A stretch of 26,132 nucleotides of DNA from a virus (taxonomy: Duplodnaviria > Heunggongvirae > Uroviricota > Caudoviricetes), in the IMG/VR virus record IMGVR_UViG_2529292735_000025; one strand, given 5' to 3'. Below are positions 17,536-25,681 of the stretch, piece after piece (positions within the stretch are counted from its first letter, which is position 1; each line of letters begins with the position of its first letter). The translations under genes were made by a program, and so were the position numbers. The notes below the pieces were generated by a model. That model was not told where the DNA came from. It was given only the letters and a program-made list of their open reading frames with translations, and did not search any database.

Positions 17536-17680
17536 CCCGGAGACGAACGGCGATTTAAGTGCCGATATCCGACAGCTTGAGAACGCGCTGGCACGCTGTG
17601 CCAGCCAGGTAAAAATGATTAAACACTGTCAGGACGAAAACGATGCTCAAACCCGACAGCCTGCGCAGGGCGCTGACTGA
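17390..17680 (+). CDS. lysC: Spanin outer-membrane lipoprotein (Rz1-like), LysC
   Basis: Lipoprotein signal with lipobox LCAGC, proline-rich; embedded in and extending past lysB. Confidence 0.7.
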   Translation: MKTKIFAAGTALACLMLCAGCTSARPAPTPVIVANACPKVSLCPMPGSDPETNGDLSADIRQLENALARCASQVKMIKHCQDENDAQTRQPAQGAD

Positions 17681-18110
17681 TGCCGTCACGGTGCTGAAAA
17701 CCAGTCCCGAGATGCTGCGGATATTCGTGGATAACGGGAGTATTGCCTCCACACTGGCGACGTCGCTGTCATTCGAAAAGCGTTACACGCTCAACGTGAT
17801 TGTGACCGACTTTACCGGTGATTTTGACCTGCTCATCGTGCCGGTGCTGGCGTGGCTGCGGGAAAATCAGCCAGACATCATGACCACCGACGCAGGCCAG
17901 AAAAAGGGCTTCACGTTTTATGCAGACATCAACAATGACAGCAGCTTTGATATCAGCATCAGTCTGATGCTGACCGAGCGCACGCTGGTCAGTGAGGTGG
18001 ACGGCGCACTGCATGTGAAGAATATCCCGGAACCTCCGCCGCCGGAGCCGGTCACCCGCCCGGTGGAGCTTTATATCAATGGTGAACTGGTGAGCAAGTG
18101 GGATGAATGA
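17643..18110 (+). CDS. R: Tail completion protein R (155 aa)
   Basis: Length and order match P2 R. Confidence 0.8.
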   Translation: MLKPDSLRRALTDAVTVLKTSPEMLRIFVDNGSIASTLATSLSFEKRYTLNVIVTDFTGDFDLLIVPVLAWLRENQPDIMTTDAGQKKGFTFYADINNDSSFDISISLMLTERTLVSEVDGALHVKNIPEPPPPEPVTRPVELYINGELVSKWDE

Positions 18111-18555
18111 GTTTAAGCGTTTTGAAGACCGGCTGACCGGACTGATTGAGTCGCTGTCACCGTCAGGGCGTCGGCGACTGAGTGCCGAACTGGCAAAACG
18201 TCTGCGACAGAGTCAGCAGCGTCGGGTGATGGCACAGAAAGCCCCGGACGGCACACCCTACGCGCCACGCCAGCAGCAGAGCGCCAGAAAAAAGACTGGT
18301 CGTGTTAAGCGAAAAATGTTTGCGAAACTTATTACCAGTCGTTTTTTGCATATCCGCGCCAGCCCGGAGCAGGCATCAATGGAATTTTACGGCGGGAAGT
18401 CGCCGAAAATCGCCAGTGTGCATCAGTTCGGTCTGTCGGAAGAAAACCGGAAAGACGGTAAGAAAATTGATTATCCGGCGCGTCCTCTGCTCGGCTTTAC
18501 CGGTGAGGATGTGCAGATGATTGAAGAGATTATCCTGGCTCACCTTGAGCGTTAG
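18103..18555 (+). CDS. S: Tail completion protein S (150 aa)
   Basis: Length and order match P2 S. Confidence 0.8.
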   Translation: MNEFKRFEDRLTGLIESLSPSGRRRLSAELAKRLRQSQQRRVMAQKAPDGTPYAPRQQQSARKKTGRVKRKMFAKLITSRFLHIRASPEQASMEFYGGKSPKIASVHQFGLSEENRKDGKKIDYPARPLLGFTGEDVQMIEEIILAHLER

Positions 18556-18585
18556 TTTTATCCAGACAGAGGCTGATGCGCAATT

Positions 18586-18620
18586 AAACATTGAGCGGCC
18601 ATGCTGGTCGCTCAATGTTT
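18586..18620. terminator. Perfect 12-bp inverted repeat AAACATTGAGCG / CGCTCAATGTTT between convergent S and the accessory gene; candidate bidirectional terminator
   Basis: Arms at 18586-18597 and 18609-18620 with an 11-nt loop, lying between two convergent stop codons. Confidence 0.5.
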
Positions 18621-18626
18621 AGAGGT

Positions 18627-19385
18627 TTATGAGTGATTTTTATTTGATGCTTTGTATTCTAAAACCTTCTTATTGGCGTAAAAGAATTTTGTATATGACA
18701 GGAATATAACCAGACCTGAAGTGAAATAGACGAGGGATAGTATTAATAATGCTTTTTTGTGACTGTTATTATCTTTAATCTCCTGGCTTAACCATTCGGA
18801 GTCCTCCTCGTTTAGCTGTAAGAGCTTATTGCAGGCGATTTCAGGAAGTGTGTCTTTTATAAATACGTTTTGCAGTCTCTTGCAATCGGCAAGGCTATAA
18901 GTTTTATTAAATTCAACTGCTTTATTTTTGAAGGATAAAAGAACTTTGTCACTATAAACATAGTACATCATATTTTTATATGGTATGCCTATGGCATCTC
19001 TTACTATAGCGGATTGTTTGTTGTGTATATAACATGCGAAGAGAATATAAATAATACTGGCCAGAATTACAATTATTGTTTTAATTATGTGTGGTGGTTT
19101 TGTTATGTCACCCCAGATGCGAGTAAGGAAAAAATACGATGTTTTTAGTTTTCCATCAATCAGTCCCTGCTGTATCATTCTCACATTTTCAATGCCTGAT
19201 ACATTGATTCCGTTAATTATTTTAAATAGTTGAATGTCGCGCCACTCGCGGTCAAGTCTTTTTAATTTTTTGTCTGAATATCCAAAATTGAAATAATGTG
19301 CAATAAGCCTCATAAGGTTACTTTTACCAAAGCTAAAAAATGCTAATACTGCAAAGCTACAAAGGAAAAAACGATTAGCCCCCAC
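18627..19385 (-). CDS. AT-rich accessory (moron) gene encoding a predicted membrane protein of unknown function
   Basis: 252-aa ORF (GTG start as called by the track), opposite in orientation to the flanking tail genes and much lower in GC. Two strongly hydrophobic helices (IIKTIIVILASIIYILFACYI; ALLILSLVYFTSGLVIFLSY). The likely native start is ATG 19411 with an AAGGAG Shine-Dalgarno, in another frame (see findings). Confidence 0.7.
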   Translation of the reverse strand: MGANRFFLCSFAVLAFFSFGKSNLMRLIAHYFNFGYSDKKLKRLDREWRDIQLFKIINGINVSGIENVRMIQQGLIDGKLKTSYFFLTRIWGDITKPPHIIKTIIVILASIIYILFACYIHNKQSAIVRDAIGIPYKNMMYYVYSDKVLLSFKNKAVEFNKTYSLADCKRLQNVFIKDTLPEIACNKLLQLNEEDSEWLSQEIKDNNSHKKALLILSLVYFTSGLVIFLSYTKFFYANKKVLEYKASNKNHS

Positions 19386-19494
19386 ACATTAGTCACATTA
19401 TAGCTGACCATTACGCTCTCCTTGAATGTTGTCTGGTAGTTCTACAAATGAATCCAGATAGCATAACTTTTATATATTGTGCAATCTCACATGC

Positions 19495-20130
19495 ATGAAC
19501 ACTCTCGCAAATATTCAGGAACTCGCGCGCGCACTGCGCAACATGATTCGCACCGGCCTTGTCGTCGAAACCGACCTTAACGCCGGTCGCTGCCGTGTGC
19601 AGACCGGCGGCATGTGCACCGACTGGCTTCAGTGGCTGACCTGTCGTGCCGGGCGTTCGCGCACATGGTGGGCACCTTCCGTGGGAGAGCAGGTGCTGAT
19701 TCTGGCCGTGGGCGGTGAACTTGACACGGCGTTTGTTCTGCCGGGGATTTATTCCGGCGATAACCCCGCGCCGTCTGCGTCGGCGGATGCCCTGCATATC
19801 CGTTTCCCTGACGGGGCGGTGATTGAGTATGAACCCGAAACCAGTGCACTCACGGTAAGCGGAATTAAAACGGCCAGCGTGACGGCTTCTGATTCTGTTA
19901 CTGCCACGGTGCCGGTGGTCATGGTGAAAGCGTCAACCCGCATCACCCTGGACACACCGGAGGTGGTCTGCACCAACAGGCTGATTACCGGCACGCTGGA
20001 AGTGCAGAAGGGCGGGACGATGCGCGGCAACATTGAACACACCGGCGGTGAACTCTCATCAAACGGTAAGGTACTGCATACCCATAAACACCCCGGCGAC
20101 AGCGGCGGCACAACCGGGAGTCCTCTATGA
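19495..20130 (+). CDS. V: Baseplate spike/assembly protein V (211 aa)
   Basis: Length and order match P2 V; start at ATG 19495 (MNTLANIQ). Confidence 0.85.
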   Translation: MNTLANIQELARALRNMIRTGLVVETDLNAGRCRVQTGGMCTDWLQWLTCRAGRSRTWWAPSVGEQVLILAVGGELDTAFVLPGIYSGDNPAPSASADALHIRFPDGAVIEYEPETSALTVSGIKTASVTASDSVTATVPVVMVKASTRITLDTPEVVCTNRLITGTLEVQKGGTMRGNIEHTGGELSSNGKVLHTHKHPGDSGGTTGSPL

Positions 20131-20474
20131 CAGCGCGTTATCTCGGAATGAATCGCAGTGATGGCCTGACTGTCACTGACCTTGAGCATATCAGCCAGAG
20201 TATCGGCGATATCCTGCGCACGCCGGTCGGCTCACGGGTGATGCGTCGTGATTACGGCTCGTTGCTGGCGTCAATGATTGACCAGCCGCAGACCCCGGCG
20301 CTTGAGTTGCAGATTAAGGTCGCCTGTTACATGGCCGTGCTGAAATGGGAACCCCGCGTCACCCTGTCATCCGTCACCACGGCGCGCAGTTTTGACGGGC
20401 GAATGACGGTCACGTTAACCGGTCAGCACAACGACACCGGCCAGCCACTTTCGTTAACCATCCCTGTGAGTTGA
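20127..20474 (+). CDS. W: Baseplate protein W (gp25-like), 115 aa
   Basis: Length and order match P2 W; translational coupling to V. Confidence 0.85.
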   Translation: MTARYLGMNRSDGLTVTDLEHISQSIGDILRTPVGSRVMRRDYGSLLASMIDQPQTPALELQIKVACYMAVLKWEPRVTLSSVTTARSFDGRMTVTLTGQHNDTGQPLSLTIPVS

Positions 20475-20478
20475 AACC

Positions 20479-21387
20479 ATGCCGATTATCGACCTGAACC
20501 AGCTACCCGCACCGGATGTGGTCGAGGAGCTGGACTTTGAAACCATTCTTGCCGAACGCAAGGCGACACTGATTTCCCTTTACCCGGAAGACCAGCAGGA
20601 GGCGGTCGCCCGTACCCTGACGCTGGAATCTGAGCCTCTCGTCAAACTGCTGGAGGAAAATGCTTATCGTGAGCTTATCTGGCGTCAGCGTGTGAATGAG
20701 GCTGCACGGGCGGTGATGCTGGCCTGTGCCGCCGGTAATGACCTTGATGTGATTGGTGCCAATTACAACACCACACGCCTGATTATCACCCCGGCAGATG
20801 ATTCGACCCTCCCGCCGACACCGGCCGTGATGGAATCTGACACCGATTATCGTCTGCGTATTCAGCAGGCGTTTGAAGGTTTAAGCGTCGCCGGGTCGGT
20901 GGGGGCCTATCAGTATCATGGTCGAAGTGCCGACGGGCGTGTCGCAGATATCTCTGTCACCAGTCCTTCTCCGGCCTGCGTCACCATCTCTGTGCTGTCA
21001 CGTGAAAATAACGGTGTGGCATCCGAAGACCTGCTGGCGGTGGTGCGCAACGCCCTTAATGGTGAGGACGTCAGACCGGTGGCCGACCGCGTGACCGTGC
21101 AGTCTGCCGCCATCGTTGAATACCAGATAAACGCCACGCTTTACCTTTACCCTGGCCCCGAAAGCGAACCCATCCGCGCTGCTGCCGTGAAAAAACTGGA
21201 AGCGTACATCACGGCACAACACCGGCTGGGGCGTGACATCCGTCTGTCTGCCATTTATGCCGCTTTGCATGTGGAAGGCGTGCAGCGTGTCGAGCTGGCC
21301 GCACCACTGGCCGACATCGTGCTCAACAATACGCAGGCGTCTTTCTGTACCGAATACCGCGTCGTGACCGGAGGCTCGGATGAGTGA
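20479..21387 (+). CDS. J: Baseplate assembly protein J (302 aa)
   Basis: Length and order match P2 J. Confidence 0.85.
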   Translation: MPIIDLNQLPAPDVVEELDFETILAERKATLISLYPEDQQEAVARTLTLESEPLVKLLEENAYRELIWRQRVNEAARAVMLACAAGNDLDVIGANYNTTRLIITPADDSTLPPTPAVMESDTDYRLRIQQAFEGLSVAGSVGAYQYHGRSADGRVADISVTSPSPACVTISVLSRENNGVASEDLLAVVRNALNGEDVRPVADRVTVQSAAIVEYQINATLYLYPGPESEPIRAAAVKKLEAYITAQHRLGRDIRLSAIYAALHVEGVQRVELAAPLADIVLNNTQASFCTEYRVVTGGSDE

Positions 21388-21910
21388 TTCGCGACTGCTG
21401 CCGACCGGCTCATCACCGCTTGAAGTTGCCGCCGCAAAAGCCTGTGCGGAAATTGAAAAGACACCGGTCAGTATTCGTGAGCTGTGGAACCCGGATACCT
21501 GTCCGGCAAATCTGCTGCCGTGGCTGGCGTGGGCGTTTTCGGTCGACAGGTGGGATGAAAAGTGGCCGGAAGCGACAAAACGCGCCGTTATCCGCGATGC
21601 CTATTTCATCCACTGTCATAAAGGCACTATCGGCGCAATCCGGCGTGTGGTGGAGCCGCTCGGCTATCTCATCAACGTGACGGAGTGGTGGGAAAACAGT
21701 GACCCGCCCGGCACCTTCCGCCTTGATATTGGTGTACTGGAAAGCGGTATCACAGAGGCAATGTATCAGGAAATGGAACGGCTGATTGCTGATGCCAAAC
21801 CTGCAAGCCGTCACCTTATTGGTCTGAACATTACCCGGGACATTCCCGGCTACCTGTTCGCCGGTGGTGTGGCTTATGACGGCGATGTAATTACGGTTTA
21901 CCCCGGATAA
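21380..21910 (+). CDS. I: Baseplate protein I (176 aa)
   Basis: Length and order match P2 I; overlaps the J stop. Confidence 0.85.
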   Translation: MSDSRLLPTGSSPLEVAAAKACAEIEKTPVSIRELWNPDTCPANLLPWLAWAFSVDRWDEKWPEATKRAVIRDAYFIHCHKGTIGAIRRVVEPLGYLINVTEWWENSDPPGTFRLDIGVLESGITEAMYQEMERLIADAKPASRHLIGLNITRDIPGYLFAGGVAYDGDVITVYPG

Positions 21911-21920
21911 GTGAGGAATA

Positions 21921-24170
21921 ATGAGCACAAAATTCAGAACCGTTATCACCACTGCTGGTGCAGCAAAGCTGGCAGCGGCAACCGCGCCGGGAGGGCGGAA
22001 GGTCAACATTACCACGATGGCCGTCGGGGATGGCGGTGGTAAATTGCCTGTCCCGGATGCCGGACAGACCGGGCTTATCCACGAAGTCTGGCGACATGCG
22101 CTGAACAAAATCAGCCAAGACAAACGAAACAGTAATTATATTATCGCAGAGCTGGTTATTCCGCCGGAGGTGGGCGGTTTCTGGATGCGTGAGCTTGGCC
22201 TGTACGATGATGCTGGAACGTTAATTGCCGTGGCGAACATGGCTGAAAGTTATAAGCCAGCTCTTGCCGAAGGCTCAGGGCGTTCGCAGACCTGCCGCAT
22301 GGTCATCATCGTCAGCAGTGTGGCCTCAGTGGCGCTGACCATTGACACCACAACGGTGATGGCAACGCAGGATTACGTTGATGACAAAATTGCAGAACAT
22401 GAACAGTCACGACGTCACCCGGACGCCTCGCTGACCGCCAAAGGTTTTACTCAGTTAAGCAGTGCGACCAACAGCACGTCTGAAACACTCGCCGCAACAC
22501 CAAAAGCGGTAAAAGCAGCATATGACCTTGCTAACGGGAAATACACTGCACAGGACGCCACCACAGCGCGAAAAGGCCTTGTCCAGCTCAGTAGTGCCAC
22601 CAACAGCACGTCTGAAACGCTCGCCGCAACACCAAAAGCGGTAAAAGCAGCATATGACCTTGCTAACGGGAAATACACTGCACAGGACGCCACCACCGCG
22701 CGAAAAGGCCTTGTCCAGCTCAGTAGCGCCACCAACAGCGATTCTGAAACGCTTGCGGCAACGCCAAAGGCGGTTAAGACAGCGTATGACCTTGCTAACG
22801 GGAAATACACTGCACAGGATGCCACCACAGCGCGAAAAGGTCTTGTCCAGCTCAGTAGCGCCACCAACAGTGATTCTGAAACGCTGGCTGCAACACCAAA
22901 AGCGGTGAAGTCTGCCTATGACAATGCTGAAAAACGTCTTCAGAAAGATCAGAACGGTGCGGATATTCCTGATAAAGGACGCTTCCTGAGTAACATTAAT
23001 GTTTACAGCAAAGGTGAAGTGGATAAGAAAAAGGGAATGCGAAAGTATTCGTTTGCAGCCCCTGCAAATGTCGTTGCCGGGAAGTGGTATCCCGTTATCT
23101 TTCGCCGTGCTGCCAGCCTTTCAGGAGAAATGGCATCCCGCGTCGTTATTTCAACTGGTTGTTATAACGGCGATTATGTAATGAATAACTGCGAGTTTAA
23201 TGGCATGGTTATGCCCGGAGGCTGGACCGATCGTGGTTCATATGCGGCAGGTTATTTCTGGACGTATCAGACTAATGAGCGTTCAATCCATTCCATTGTT
23301 ACAAGCCTGAAAGATGATGATGTATGTAGTGTTTTTTATGTTGAAGCCAGAGCTTTCCCTGTACAAATTCTTGCAGAGGAAGGGCTAACGGTTATTGTTC
23401 CGACAGAGGATTATGTCGTCGGTCAAACGACATATAAGTGGGGGGCAACTAATCCCGCTACAGAAAGCACGAACGCACAGGCTATTCTGGATTTTAAAAA
23501 TGGGCGCGGTTATTACTGCTCACATCCATTTATTTCCAGCCTTTCAGGAAATGCTGCAACAGCAACGAAGTTAGCGAATGCAAGAAATATTAATGGTGTC
23601 AGATTTGATGGTTCTGCCGATATAAATATTAATACACTGGTATCCAGAAACCGTGTTACTGCATTAGGTGGGAGCTCAAAGGGTACACCAGGTATTCAGA
23701 TGTATGAGGCATACAACAATGGCTACCCAACAGCCTATGGTAATGTGCTTCATCTCACTGGCGTAACCGCAGTAGGAGAGGGTGAGTTACTTATTGGCTG
23801 GAGTGGAACCAGCGGTGCTCATGCTCCGGCATATATTCGCTCCCGACGAGATACCACAGATGCTAACTGGTCTGGATGGGCGCAACTATATACAACTGCT
23901 CATAAACCCTCAGCGGGAGATGTTGGTGCATACACCAAAGCTGAGTCAGATTCACGTTATGTGAGAGACATGCGACTGGGCGGTGCATCTACATATAAAC
24001 CAGCAAATAATGGTACTACATGGACGCATCAGGCTCCGTCAGGTTGCGTATATACCGGCATTATTGTTCAGGATACCGGCTCAAACTCTGCCGATAACAT
24101 TGGTGGCGTATATTACAGGCCGGTGCAGAAATACATTAACGGGACATGGTATAACGTGGCGCAGGTATAA
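21921..24170 (+). CDS. H: Tail fibre protein H (749 aa) with tandem fibre repeats and a mosaic C-terminal receptor-binding region
   Basis: Conserved N-terminus for baseplate attachment, 44-aa tandem repeats (QLSSATNS.SETLAATPKAVKAAYDLANGKYTAQDATTARKGLV), and an AT-richer C-terminal portion containing a second fibre motif (GNAATATKLANARNINGVRFDGSADINI). Confidence 0.85.
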   Translation: MSTKFRTVITTAGAAKLAAATAPGGRKVNITTMAVGDGGGKLPVPDAGQTGLIHEVWRHALNKISQDKRNSNYIIAELVIPPEVGGFWMRELGLYDDAGTLIAVANMAESYKPALAEGSGRSQTCRMVIIVSSVASVALTIDTTTVMATQDYVDDKIAEHEQSRRHPDASLTAKGFTQLSSATNSTSETLAATPKAVKAAYDLANGKYTAQDATTARKGLVQLSSATNSTSETLAATPKAVKAAYDLANGKYTAQDATTARKGLVQLSSATNSDSETLAATPKAVKTAYDLANGKYTAQDATTARKGLVQLSSATNSDSETLAATPKAVKSAYDNAEKRLQKDQNGADIPDKGRFLSNINVYSKGEVDKKKGMRKYSFAAPANVVAGKWYPVIFRRAASLSGEMASRVVISTGCYNGDYVMNNCEFNGMVMPGGWTDRGSYAAGYFWTYQTNERSIHSIVTSLKDDDVCSVFYVEARAFPVQILAEEGLTVIVPTEDYVVGQTTYKWGATNPATESTNAQAILDFKNGRGYYCSHPFISSLSGNAATATKLANARNINGVRFDGSADININTLVSRNRVTALGGSSKGTPGIQMYEAYNNGYPTAYGNVLHLTGVTAVGEGELLIGWSGTSGAHAPAYIRSRRDTTDANWSGWAQLYTTAHKPSAGDVGAYTKAESDSRYVRDMRLGGASTYKPANNGTTWTHQAPSGCVYTGIIVQDTGSNSADNIGGVYYRPVQKYINGTWYNVAQV
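22452..22925 (+). repeat. About 3.5 tandem copies of a 132-bp (44-codon) in-frame repeat inside H
   Basis: Near-identical 132-bp units beginning around 22452, 22584, 22716 and 22848, visible in both the nucleotide sequence and the translation. Confidence 0.85.
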
Positions 24171-24173
24171 TTT

Positions 24174-24282
24174 ATGCAGCATTTAAAAAATATTACGGCG
24201 GGTAATCCAAAAACGGTTGAACAATATCAATTGACAAAGAACTTTGATGTTGTCTGGTTTTTTCAGAAGATGGTAAGAACTG
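24174..24282 (+). pseudogene. G: Tail fibre assembly gene G, disrupted (N-terminal fragment; continues at 25619-25681 after IS2)
   Basis: [28 protein letters not shown] is the typical G N-terminus. The reading frame shifts inside a T6 run (24258-24263), IS2 is inserted at 24283, and the remaining G sequence (SEDGKNWYEE...TIKIAYDKDN) is cut again by an IS66-type end at 25682. Confidence 0.7.
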
Positions 24283-24373
24283 TAGACTGGCCCCCTGAAT
24301 CTCCAGACAACCAATATCACTTAAATAAGTGATAGTCTTAATACTAGTTTTTAGACTAGTCATTGGAGAGCAG

Positions 24374-24739
24374 ATGATTGATGTCTTAGGACCGGAGAAA
24401 CGCAGACGGCGTACTACACAGGAAAGATCGCTATTGTTCAGCAGAGTTTTGAACCGGGAATGACGGTCTCCCTTGTTGCCCGGCAACACGGTGTGGCAGC
24501 CAGCCAGTTATTCTCTGGCGCAAGCAATACCAGGAGGGAAGTCTTACTGCTGTGGCCGCAGGAGAGCAGGTCGTTCCTGCCTCTGAACTTGCTGCTGCCA
24601 TGAAGCAGATTAAAGAACTCCAGCGCCTGCTACGGACAAAAAAACGATGGAAAATGAACTCCTTAAAGAAGCCGTTGAATACGGGCGTGCAAAAAAGTGG
24701 ATAGCGCACGCGCCCTTATTGCCCGGGGATGGGGAGTAA
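24374..24739 (+). pseudogene. insC: IS2 orfA (insC), frame-disrupted in at least three places
   Basis: Segments of the recognisable InsC protein ([17 protein letters not shown] / [29 protein letters not shown] / [31 protein letters not shown] / [31 protein letters not shown]) are found in three different frames; net frame change is zero. Confidence 0.7.
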
Positions 24740-25602
24740 GCTTAGTCAGCCGTTGTCTCCGGGTGTCGCGTGCGCAGTTGCACGTAATTCTCAGACGAAC
24801 CGATGACTGGAAAGATGGTCGCCGCAGCCGTCACTCAGATGATACGGATGTGCTTCTCCGTATACACCATGTTATCGGAGAGCTGCCCACGTATGGTTAT
24901 CGTCGGGTATGGGCGCTGCTTCGCAGACAGGCCGAACTTGATGGTATGCCTGCGATCAATGCCAAACGTGTTTACCGGATCATGCGCCAGAATGCGCTGT
25001 TGCTTGAGCGAAAAACCGCTGTACCGCCATCGAAACGGGCACATACTGGCAAAGTGGCCGTGAAAGAAAGCAATCAACGATGGTGCTCTGACGGGTTCGA
25101 GTTCCGCTGTGATAACGGAGAAAAACTGCGAGTCACGTTCGCGCTGGACTGCTGTGACCGTGAGGCACTGCACTGGGCAGTCACTACGGGCGGCTTCGAC
25201 AGTGAAACAGTACAGGACGTAATGCTGGGAGCGGTGGAACGCCGCTTCGGCAACGAGCTTCCGGCGTCTCCAGTAGAGTGGCTGACGGATAATGGTTCAT
25301 GCTACCGGGCTAATGAAACACGGCAGTTTGCCCGGATGTTGGGGCTTGAACCGAAGAACACGGCGGTGCGGAGTCCGGAGAGTAACGGCATAGCAGAGAG
25401 CTTCGTGAAAACGATAAAGCGTGACTACATCAGTATCATGCCTAAACCAGACGGGTTAACGGCAGCAAAGAACCTTGCAGAGGCGTTCGAGCATTATAAC
25501 GAATGGCATCCGCATAGTGCACTGGGTTATCGCTCGCCACGGGAATATCTGCGGCAGCAGGCCAGTAATGGGTTAAGTGATAACAGGTGTCTGGAAATAT
25601 AG
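24697..25602 (+). CDS. insD: IS2 transposase orfB (InsD, DDE catalytic domain), 301 aa
   Basis: Full-length 301-aa ORF closely resembling E. coli IS2 InsD as recalled; normally expressed as an InsCD fusion by -1 frameshifting. Confidence 0.85.
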
Positions 25603-25681
25603 GGGCAAATCCAAACTGGTACGAAGAACAAAAGTATTTTGCTGATGACACGATAAAAATAGCGTACGACAAAGATAATAT

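Follow-up and report, generated by a model that had tools for sequence, protein, structure and literature searches.

In the window analysed here, that is, the whole stretch of 26,132 nucleotides, the homologue of the phage P2 gene orf30 lacks a single T from a run of seven, and its reading frame is interrupted after 22 codons. We infer that this particular missing base is an error. The T6 run probably reflects the under-calling of a homopolymer in a draft of 2012, in which case the real orf30 would be intact and would start at the ATG at 19411, and the organism itself most likely does not have the break. The break carries little biological weight, whether it arose as an error of draft assembly or as an ordinary slip that inactivated a nonessential gene of the prophage. 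The window can be recognized by its similarity to P2 as a P2-like (Peduovirus) prophage, and the features that frame the gene and its start region are as follows.

18103..18555, plus strand, tail completion gene S (flanking context)
18586..18620, no strand assigned, 12-bp inverted repeat AAACATTGAGCG ... CGCTCAATGTTT between the convergent orf30 and S genes, a putative rho-independent terminator in the P2 annotation
18627..19385, minus strand, long open reading frame (ORF) taken from the ORF list and counted from a GTG, covering Orf30 from about residue 16 to residue 261 plus the stop codon
19311..19313, minus strand, internal ATG corresponding to Met34 of Orf30, start in the DEC14C GenBank annotation (EHX83966.1, 228 aa)
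19343..19411, minus strand, 22-codon truncated frame from the authentic ATG, closed by a TAG stop codon at 19345-19343
19366..19371, minus strand, T6 run (A6 on the plus strand), T7 in all tract-bearing relatives from outside the DECA project
19409..19411, minus strand, authentic orf30 start ATG, equal to the annotated starts of P2 orf30 (AF063097 10224) and WP_001504911.1
19418..19423, minus strand, Shine-Dalgarno (SD) sequence AAGGAG of orf30, supported by direct reading, by anti-SD pairing and by its retention in divergent alleles
19426..19453, plus strand, late promoter pV activator binding site, just upstream of orf30 and in divergent orientation, with coordinates transferred from the P2 annotation
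19495..20130, plus strand, baseplate/spike gene V (flanking context)

The identity of the gene was established by comparison with P2. Across 961 nt, the window is 98.6% identical at the DNA level to P2 orf30 (AAD03281.1; PHROG 2407), and both genomes carry the gene in the same S-V interval and in the same orientation, with the same SD, ATG, stop codon and terminator. The pV activator site is likewise identical to that of P2 over its aligned part. On these alignments, the gene is recognizable as a homologue of orf30, a P2 cargo gene that is long known and of unknown function. P2 orf30 and its near-identical counterpart in the prophage of E. coli APEC O2-211 (WP_001504911.1) both measure 786 nt and have as start codon the ATG that corresponds to 19411; over 142 aligned bases, the T7 run that they carry in place of T6 is the sole difference from the window. 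Unlike P2 orf30, the window thus has T6 at codons 14-16. With the frame repaired, the window protein shares 98% identity with P2 Orf30 and 100% with WP_001504911.1, and it matches phrog_2407 over residues 1-261 of 261 (E 1.1e-148). The P2 record labels orf30 as "nonessential" and gives its product as 261 aa, a length shared by all five representatives of the protein-family clusters. The orf30 region, between 18500 and 19500, also stands out by its GC content (0.28-0.40 vs 0.55-0.65 in the flanks).

An earlier reading, made from the sequence alone, had proposed that a start codon with a strong ribosome-binding site opens a 22-codon frame that is out of frame with the long ORF. Direct inspection of the sequence agreed, the minus-strand frame from the ATG at 19411 being translated as MVSYNVTNVWGLIVFSFVALQY and the long ORF (19385-18627, 252 codons from the GTG) lying in the -1 frame relative to it. 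No single continuous 261-codon frame from the SD-associated ATG is present in the window as sequenced, with T6 and a stop codon after 22 codons. The AAGGAG motif and the ATG are as described, with the correction that the spacer between them is 6 nt (AGCGTA) rather than the 7 nt given in that reading. Pairing with the anti-SD sequence of the 16S rRNA reached -8.5 kcal/mol at this ATG, against a background in which, among all 20-mers of the window, 1.2% reach -9.0 and 3.7% reach -7.0 kcal/mol. The GTG located 26 nt downstream had been said to lack a ribosome-binding site and scored +0.7 kcal/mol, consistent with that description; the internal ATG at 19313 scored -2.8 kcal/mol, corresponding to a weak SD.

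The same reading had placed the defect in the homopolymer at 19366-19371, where one extra base would join the two frames. Adding one T to the run indeed yields MVSYNVTNVWGLIVFFLCSFAVLAFFSFGK..., identical to the annotated P2 orf30 and E. coli WP_001504911.1 proteins. It had also predicted that the repair adds an N-terminal membrane helix, and the segment gained is hydrophobic at residues ~10-28 (Kyte-Doolittle peak of 2.4). This helix is retained in alleles that are only 80-88% identical, despite their diverged codons. The comparison with homologous genes that the reading had called for located the start at the strong-RBS ATG, since P2 and APEC O2-211 share it together with the T7 run and the full-length gene. 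Homologues with a confirmed 6-mer and a downstream start, which would have spoken for the opposite view, were absent from the relatives that do not belong to the DECA project, and SD, ATG and frame are all preserved in divergent alleles.

A census of tract length was compiled across several collections. The T7 run was found in all 35 sequences of a set comprising 33 IMG/VR contigs, P2 and APEC O2-211, in 15/15 metagenome contigs and in the single GTDB genome contig; none of the viral, metagenome and genome-contig matches had T6, all 49 being T7. Among complete E. coli records, searched for exact matches with 82-84-nt queries, 158 carried T7 and none carried T6 or T8. Altogether, T6 was absent from orf30 in more than 200 sequences from sources outside the DECA project, in which relatives have either T7 or no tract at all and in which the start ATG is the same throughout. 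Divergent phage alleles of the latter kind show TTTTGTATC in place of the T7 run, with SD, ATG and frame conserved, indicating that the run is incidental to one allele and is not a conserved signal. One match came from an unexpected source, namely a 579-nt contig (JANCAF010000122.1, L072) of an assembly labelled Actinacidiphila cocklensis DSM 42063; the contig includes the start region of P2 orf30, with T7, and is most likely a contaminant from E. coli or P2.

The T6 run was found in only three contigs, namely those of E. coli DEC14C (AIHM01000067.1) and E. coli DEC14B (AIHL01000077.1) and AIHP01000031.1, all of which are DECA drafts. Their accessions fall inside the range of the DECA collection, AIEV-AIHS (PMC3558956). 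The window itself belongs to this group, as positions 8627-26132 are identical to the DEC14C draft contig, bar one N in the stored copy. The drafts of DEC14B and DEC14C, which are named for the same clone group and contain the same prophage, differ by nine single-base indels and one substitution in 24.3 kb, whereas the window is separated from contigs obtained outside the project by 0-12 substitutions, without a single indel. Judged from these alignments, nine indels for one substitution is not a product of evolution, and the proportion shows that indel errors are dense in the DECA drafts. The frameshifts private to DEC14B affect the integrase, ATP-binding protein, portal and scaffold genes as well as orf30, and the same contig (L041/L050) also has two insertions outside homopolymers in the scaffold gene, at window positions 13040 and 13048; pseudogene calls made from this assembly are unreliable. 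Private to DEC14C are an intergenic indel at 9228-9231 and a frameshift in the tail-fibre assembly gene. An indel suspected in the portal gene of DEC14C was rejected, the 322-aa call being an annotation choice and the ORF in the window encoding 344 aa.

The third contig provides the most telling comparison. The prophage of AIHP01000031.1 is an independent lineage, about 3% divergent with ~250 substitutions per 9 kb, and its private 1-nt indels number only two, both in orf30: the T7 to T6 change and an A6 to A5 change at nt 147. The latter is identical in DEC14B and AIHP01000031.1. Two identical rare changes that occur in unrelated templates of one project and nowhere else fit a context-dependent homopolymer under-call, and it is very unlikely that independent real mutations would have recurred identically in unrelated DECA templates.

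The window was also compared with the APEC O2-211 prophage over 24,282 bases, revealing two substitutions and four indels. At all four indels, the window is one base shorter in an A/T run.

8444, T7 to T6, in the ATP-binding protein gene
9228, T4 to T3, intergenic
19366-19371, A7 to A6, in orf30
24257, T7 to T6, in the tail-fibre assembly gene

Of the seven 7-base runs, three were shortened, and no shortening was seen in any of the 113 runs with five or six bases. The possibility that all four indels are artefacts was rejected, as the change at 8444 is present in independent datasets: the 179-aa fragment that it creates is also found in ENA metagenome and Logan assemblies. The T6 run at 8444 can therefore be taken as real, being common to independent ENA and Logan contigs (0-12 substitutions, no indels), and it follows that not every shared homopolymer difference in the DECA drafts is artefactual. 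Unlike the change in orf30, the frameshift at 8444 is, as far as these independent contigs indicate, a real circulating allele. The affected gene (6987-8944, minus strand) encodes a 652-aa HATPase_c_3 "ATP-binding protein" in a variable cargo region; it is split into pieces of 179 aa and 333 aa by T6 (8444-8449) vs T7 in APEC O2-211, is described in some records as a BbrUII/HgiDII family restriction enzyme, and adjoins a DNA cytosine methyltransferase gene. At 9228-9231, DEC14C has T3, and T4 is found in APEC O2-211, DEC14B and two further contigs (L037 and L038); this T3 is probably another single-base assembly error.

Taken together, these comparisons make a homopolymer under-call the likely origin of the T6 run in orf30. 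One T missing from a T7 run would be enough to create the apparent frameshift, and the under-call would probably stem from 454 pyrosequencing; the real gene in DEC14C would then read straight through from the ATG at 19411 to give a 261-aa protein. The DECA genomes were reportedly sequenced and assembled in the same way as those of a sister project, that is, with 454 Titanium FLX reads and the Celera assembler. Use of this platform and assembler is documented for the sister project, conducted in 2012 by the same laboratory and sequencing centre (PMC3491183). The pattern resembles known pyrosequencing-era homopolymer errors in that the under-call of one base falls in the longest A/T run class of the window, that indels far exceed substitutions between DECA drafts of the same prophage, and that the same sites are struck in unrelated strains of one project. 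It departs from them in that one shared homopolymer difference, at 8444, is real. The records of DEC14C (EHX83966.1, with its 228-aa product from the internal ATG), DEC14B and AIHP01000031.1 mis-describe orf30, and frameshifts in A/T runs of DECA drafts call for resequencing before a pseudogene is assigned.

The T6 run could alternatively be a real replication-slippage deletion of the DEC14 lineage that turned orf30 into a pseudogene, an explanation that we regard as unlikely but worth weighing. An inherited mutation would be expected to be common to DEC14B and DEC14C, as T6 is, and the change at 8444 provides a precedent for a real shared homopolymer difference in this prophage. The gene is nonessential in P2, and it has been independently inactivated in other prophages, making a real slip biologically plausible. 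The lesions concerned were found through a 114-aa C-terminal Orf30 fragment, in assemblies from outside the DECA project. They comprise a stop codon at W10 (TGG to TGA), insertion of IS21 near nt 306, and changes of T6 in both directions, to T5 and to T7, in each of two runs, one at nt 279-284 and the other, in the P2-type allele, at nt ~358-363; some of these cannot be homopolymer miscounts. They suggest a recurrent loss of orf30 in lysogens, and the several independent knockouts in natural prophages suggest that this loss is tolerated or even favoured. The 114-aa fragment itself is indexed in 58 blocks of the sequence collection.

The tail-fibre assembly gene of the DEC14C prophage (24174-24332) is a 52-aa stub, with T6 in place of T7 at 24257-24263, where DEC14B has T7. 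Homology with the intact prophage stops at 24282 and is followed by an element (24283-25602) with an rve-family transposase (24697-25602), so that an IS appears to have inserted in this gene in DEC14C and to be absent from DEC14B. The insertion suggests that the DEC14C prophage may be decaying, which would agree with a genuine loss of orf30. Against such a loss stand the recurrence of the same T7 to T6 change, together with the identical change at nt 147, in an unrelated prophage lineage of the same project, the lack of T6 in the more than 200 sequences from other sources, and the 9:1 excess of indels over substitutions between two project drafts of the same prophage. If the T6 run were nonetheless real, the strong start would yield only a 22-aa hydrophobic peptide, and the remainder would be untranslated or translated at trace level, having no usable ribosome-binding site; a product from Met34 would be devoid of the first membrane helix.

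Another view is that orf30 is a mutation-prone on/off cargo gene, of which the DEC T6 allele is a genuine OFF state made leaky by -1 slippage. By means of its many A/T runs (among them the T7 and three of T6 or A6), lysogens could repeatedly switch a costly membrane protein off and occasionally on again. We consider this highly improbable. Even harder to credit is that T6 is itself functional, either through programmed -1 ribosomal or transcriptional slippage that restores Orf30 or as a phase-variable on/off switch. The wild-type protein would be regenerated exactly if tRNA-Phe slipped by -1 on UUU or if the mRNA gained one U, there is an SD-like GGGGG 7 nt upstream of the T6 run, and other A/T runs of orf30 vary by ±1 among assemblies. 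As in the P2-family tail chaperone E/E+E' and in dnaX, a T-rich run, here in a P2-like genome, marks a place where a -1 shift would join two frames. Unlike in those systems, however, the 0-frame sequence GUU UUU UCC contains no X XXY YYZ slippery heptamer, leaving only single-tRNA P-site slippage, and no stimulatory structure was detected downstream of the run (MFE of -10.8 kcal/mol vs a shuffle mean of -12.6, z +0.62). The two-frame arrangement is not conserved either, as homologues either carry T7 within a single frame or lack the run, and programmed recoding is therefore not supported. A run of 6-7 nt is also short for efficient slippage in E. coli. Finally, the tract is invariant in nature (158 T7, 0 T6 and 0 T8), and the locus is thus not behaving as a phase-variable one.

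That orf30 truly starts at the GTG at 19385 or the ATG at 19313, making the upstream SD-associated ATG irrelevant, is barely conceivable: the latter start is used for the 228-aa product in the DEC14C annotation and in some automatic calls on intact T7 DNA, but both downstream codons lack a usable SD (+0.7 and -2.8 vs -8.5 kcal/mol), all five family representatives are 261 aa long, four E. coli-type clusters share the N-terminus M-V/F-S-x-N-V-T-N (the fifth being a partial record), and the N-terminal helix as well as the SD and ATG at the DNA level are kept in divergent alleles. The other carriers of the exact 228-aa call have T7 and not T6, apart from one further contig that ends just before the tract, indicating that these calls reflect the choice of start codon or the W10 stop. 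Two of them, L037 and L038, had been considered as T6 carriers and were rejected, the former being a start choice on T7 DNA and the latter a case of the W10 stop. In L037, a JGI contig (3300045988) with an intact T7 run, the automatic caller took the internal ATG (228 aa) over the SD-associated ATG (261 aa), showing that annotation of the orf30 start is inconsistent even without a frameshift.

Read from the SD-associated ATG, intact Orf30 contains three hydrophobic segments, at residues ~10-28, 108-128 and 221-239, and is predicted to be a 261-aa membrane protein with three helices. Searches of Pfam and PADLOC with Orf30 returned no match, and PHROG 2407 is a family with no known function. An AlphaFold2 model of the protein (pLDDT 72) gave no significant fold match in PDB or BFVD. 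In P2-like phages, the orf30 site is one of three variable cargo regions, and the function of Orf30 is given as unknown (PMC3091744). Elsewhere in the window, secondary BLAST alignments revealed direct repeats of ~336 nt in the tail-fibre gene (22461-22928), which are 91% identical and offset by 132 nt.
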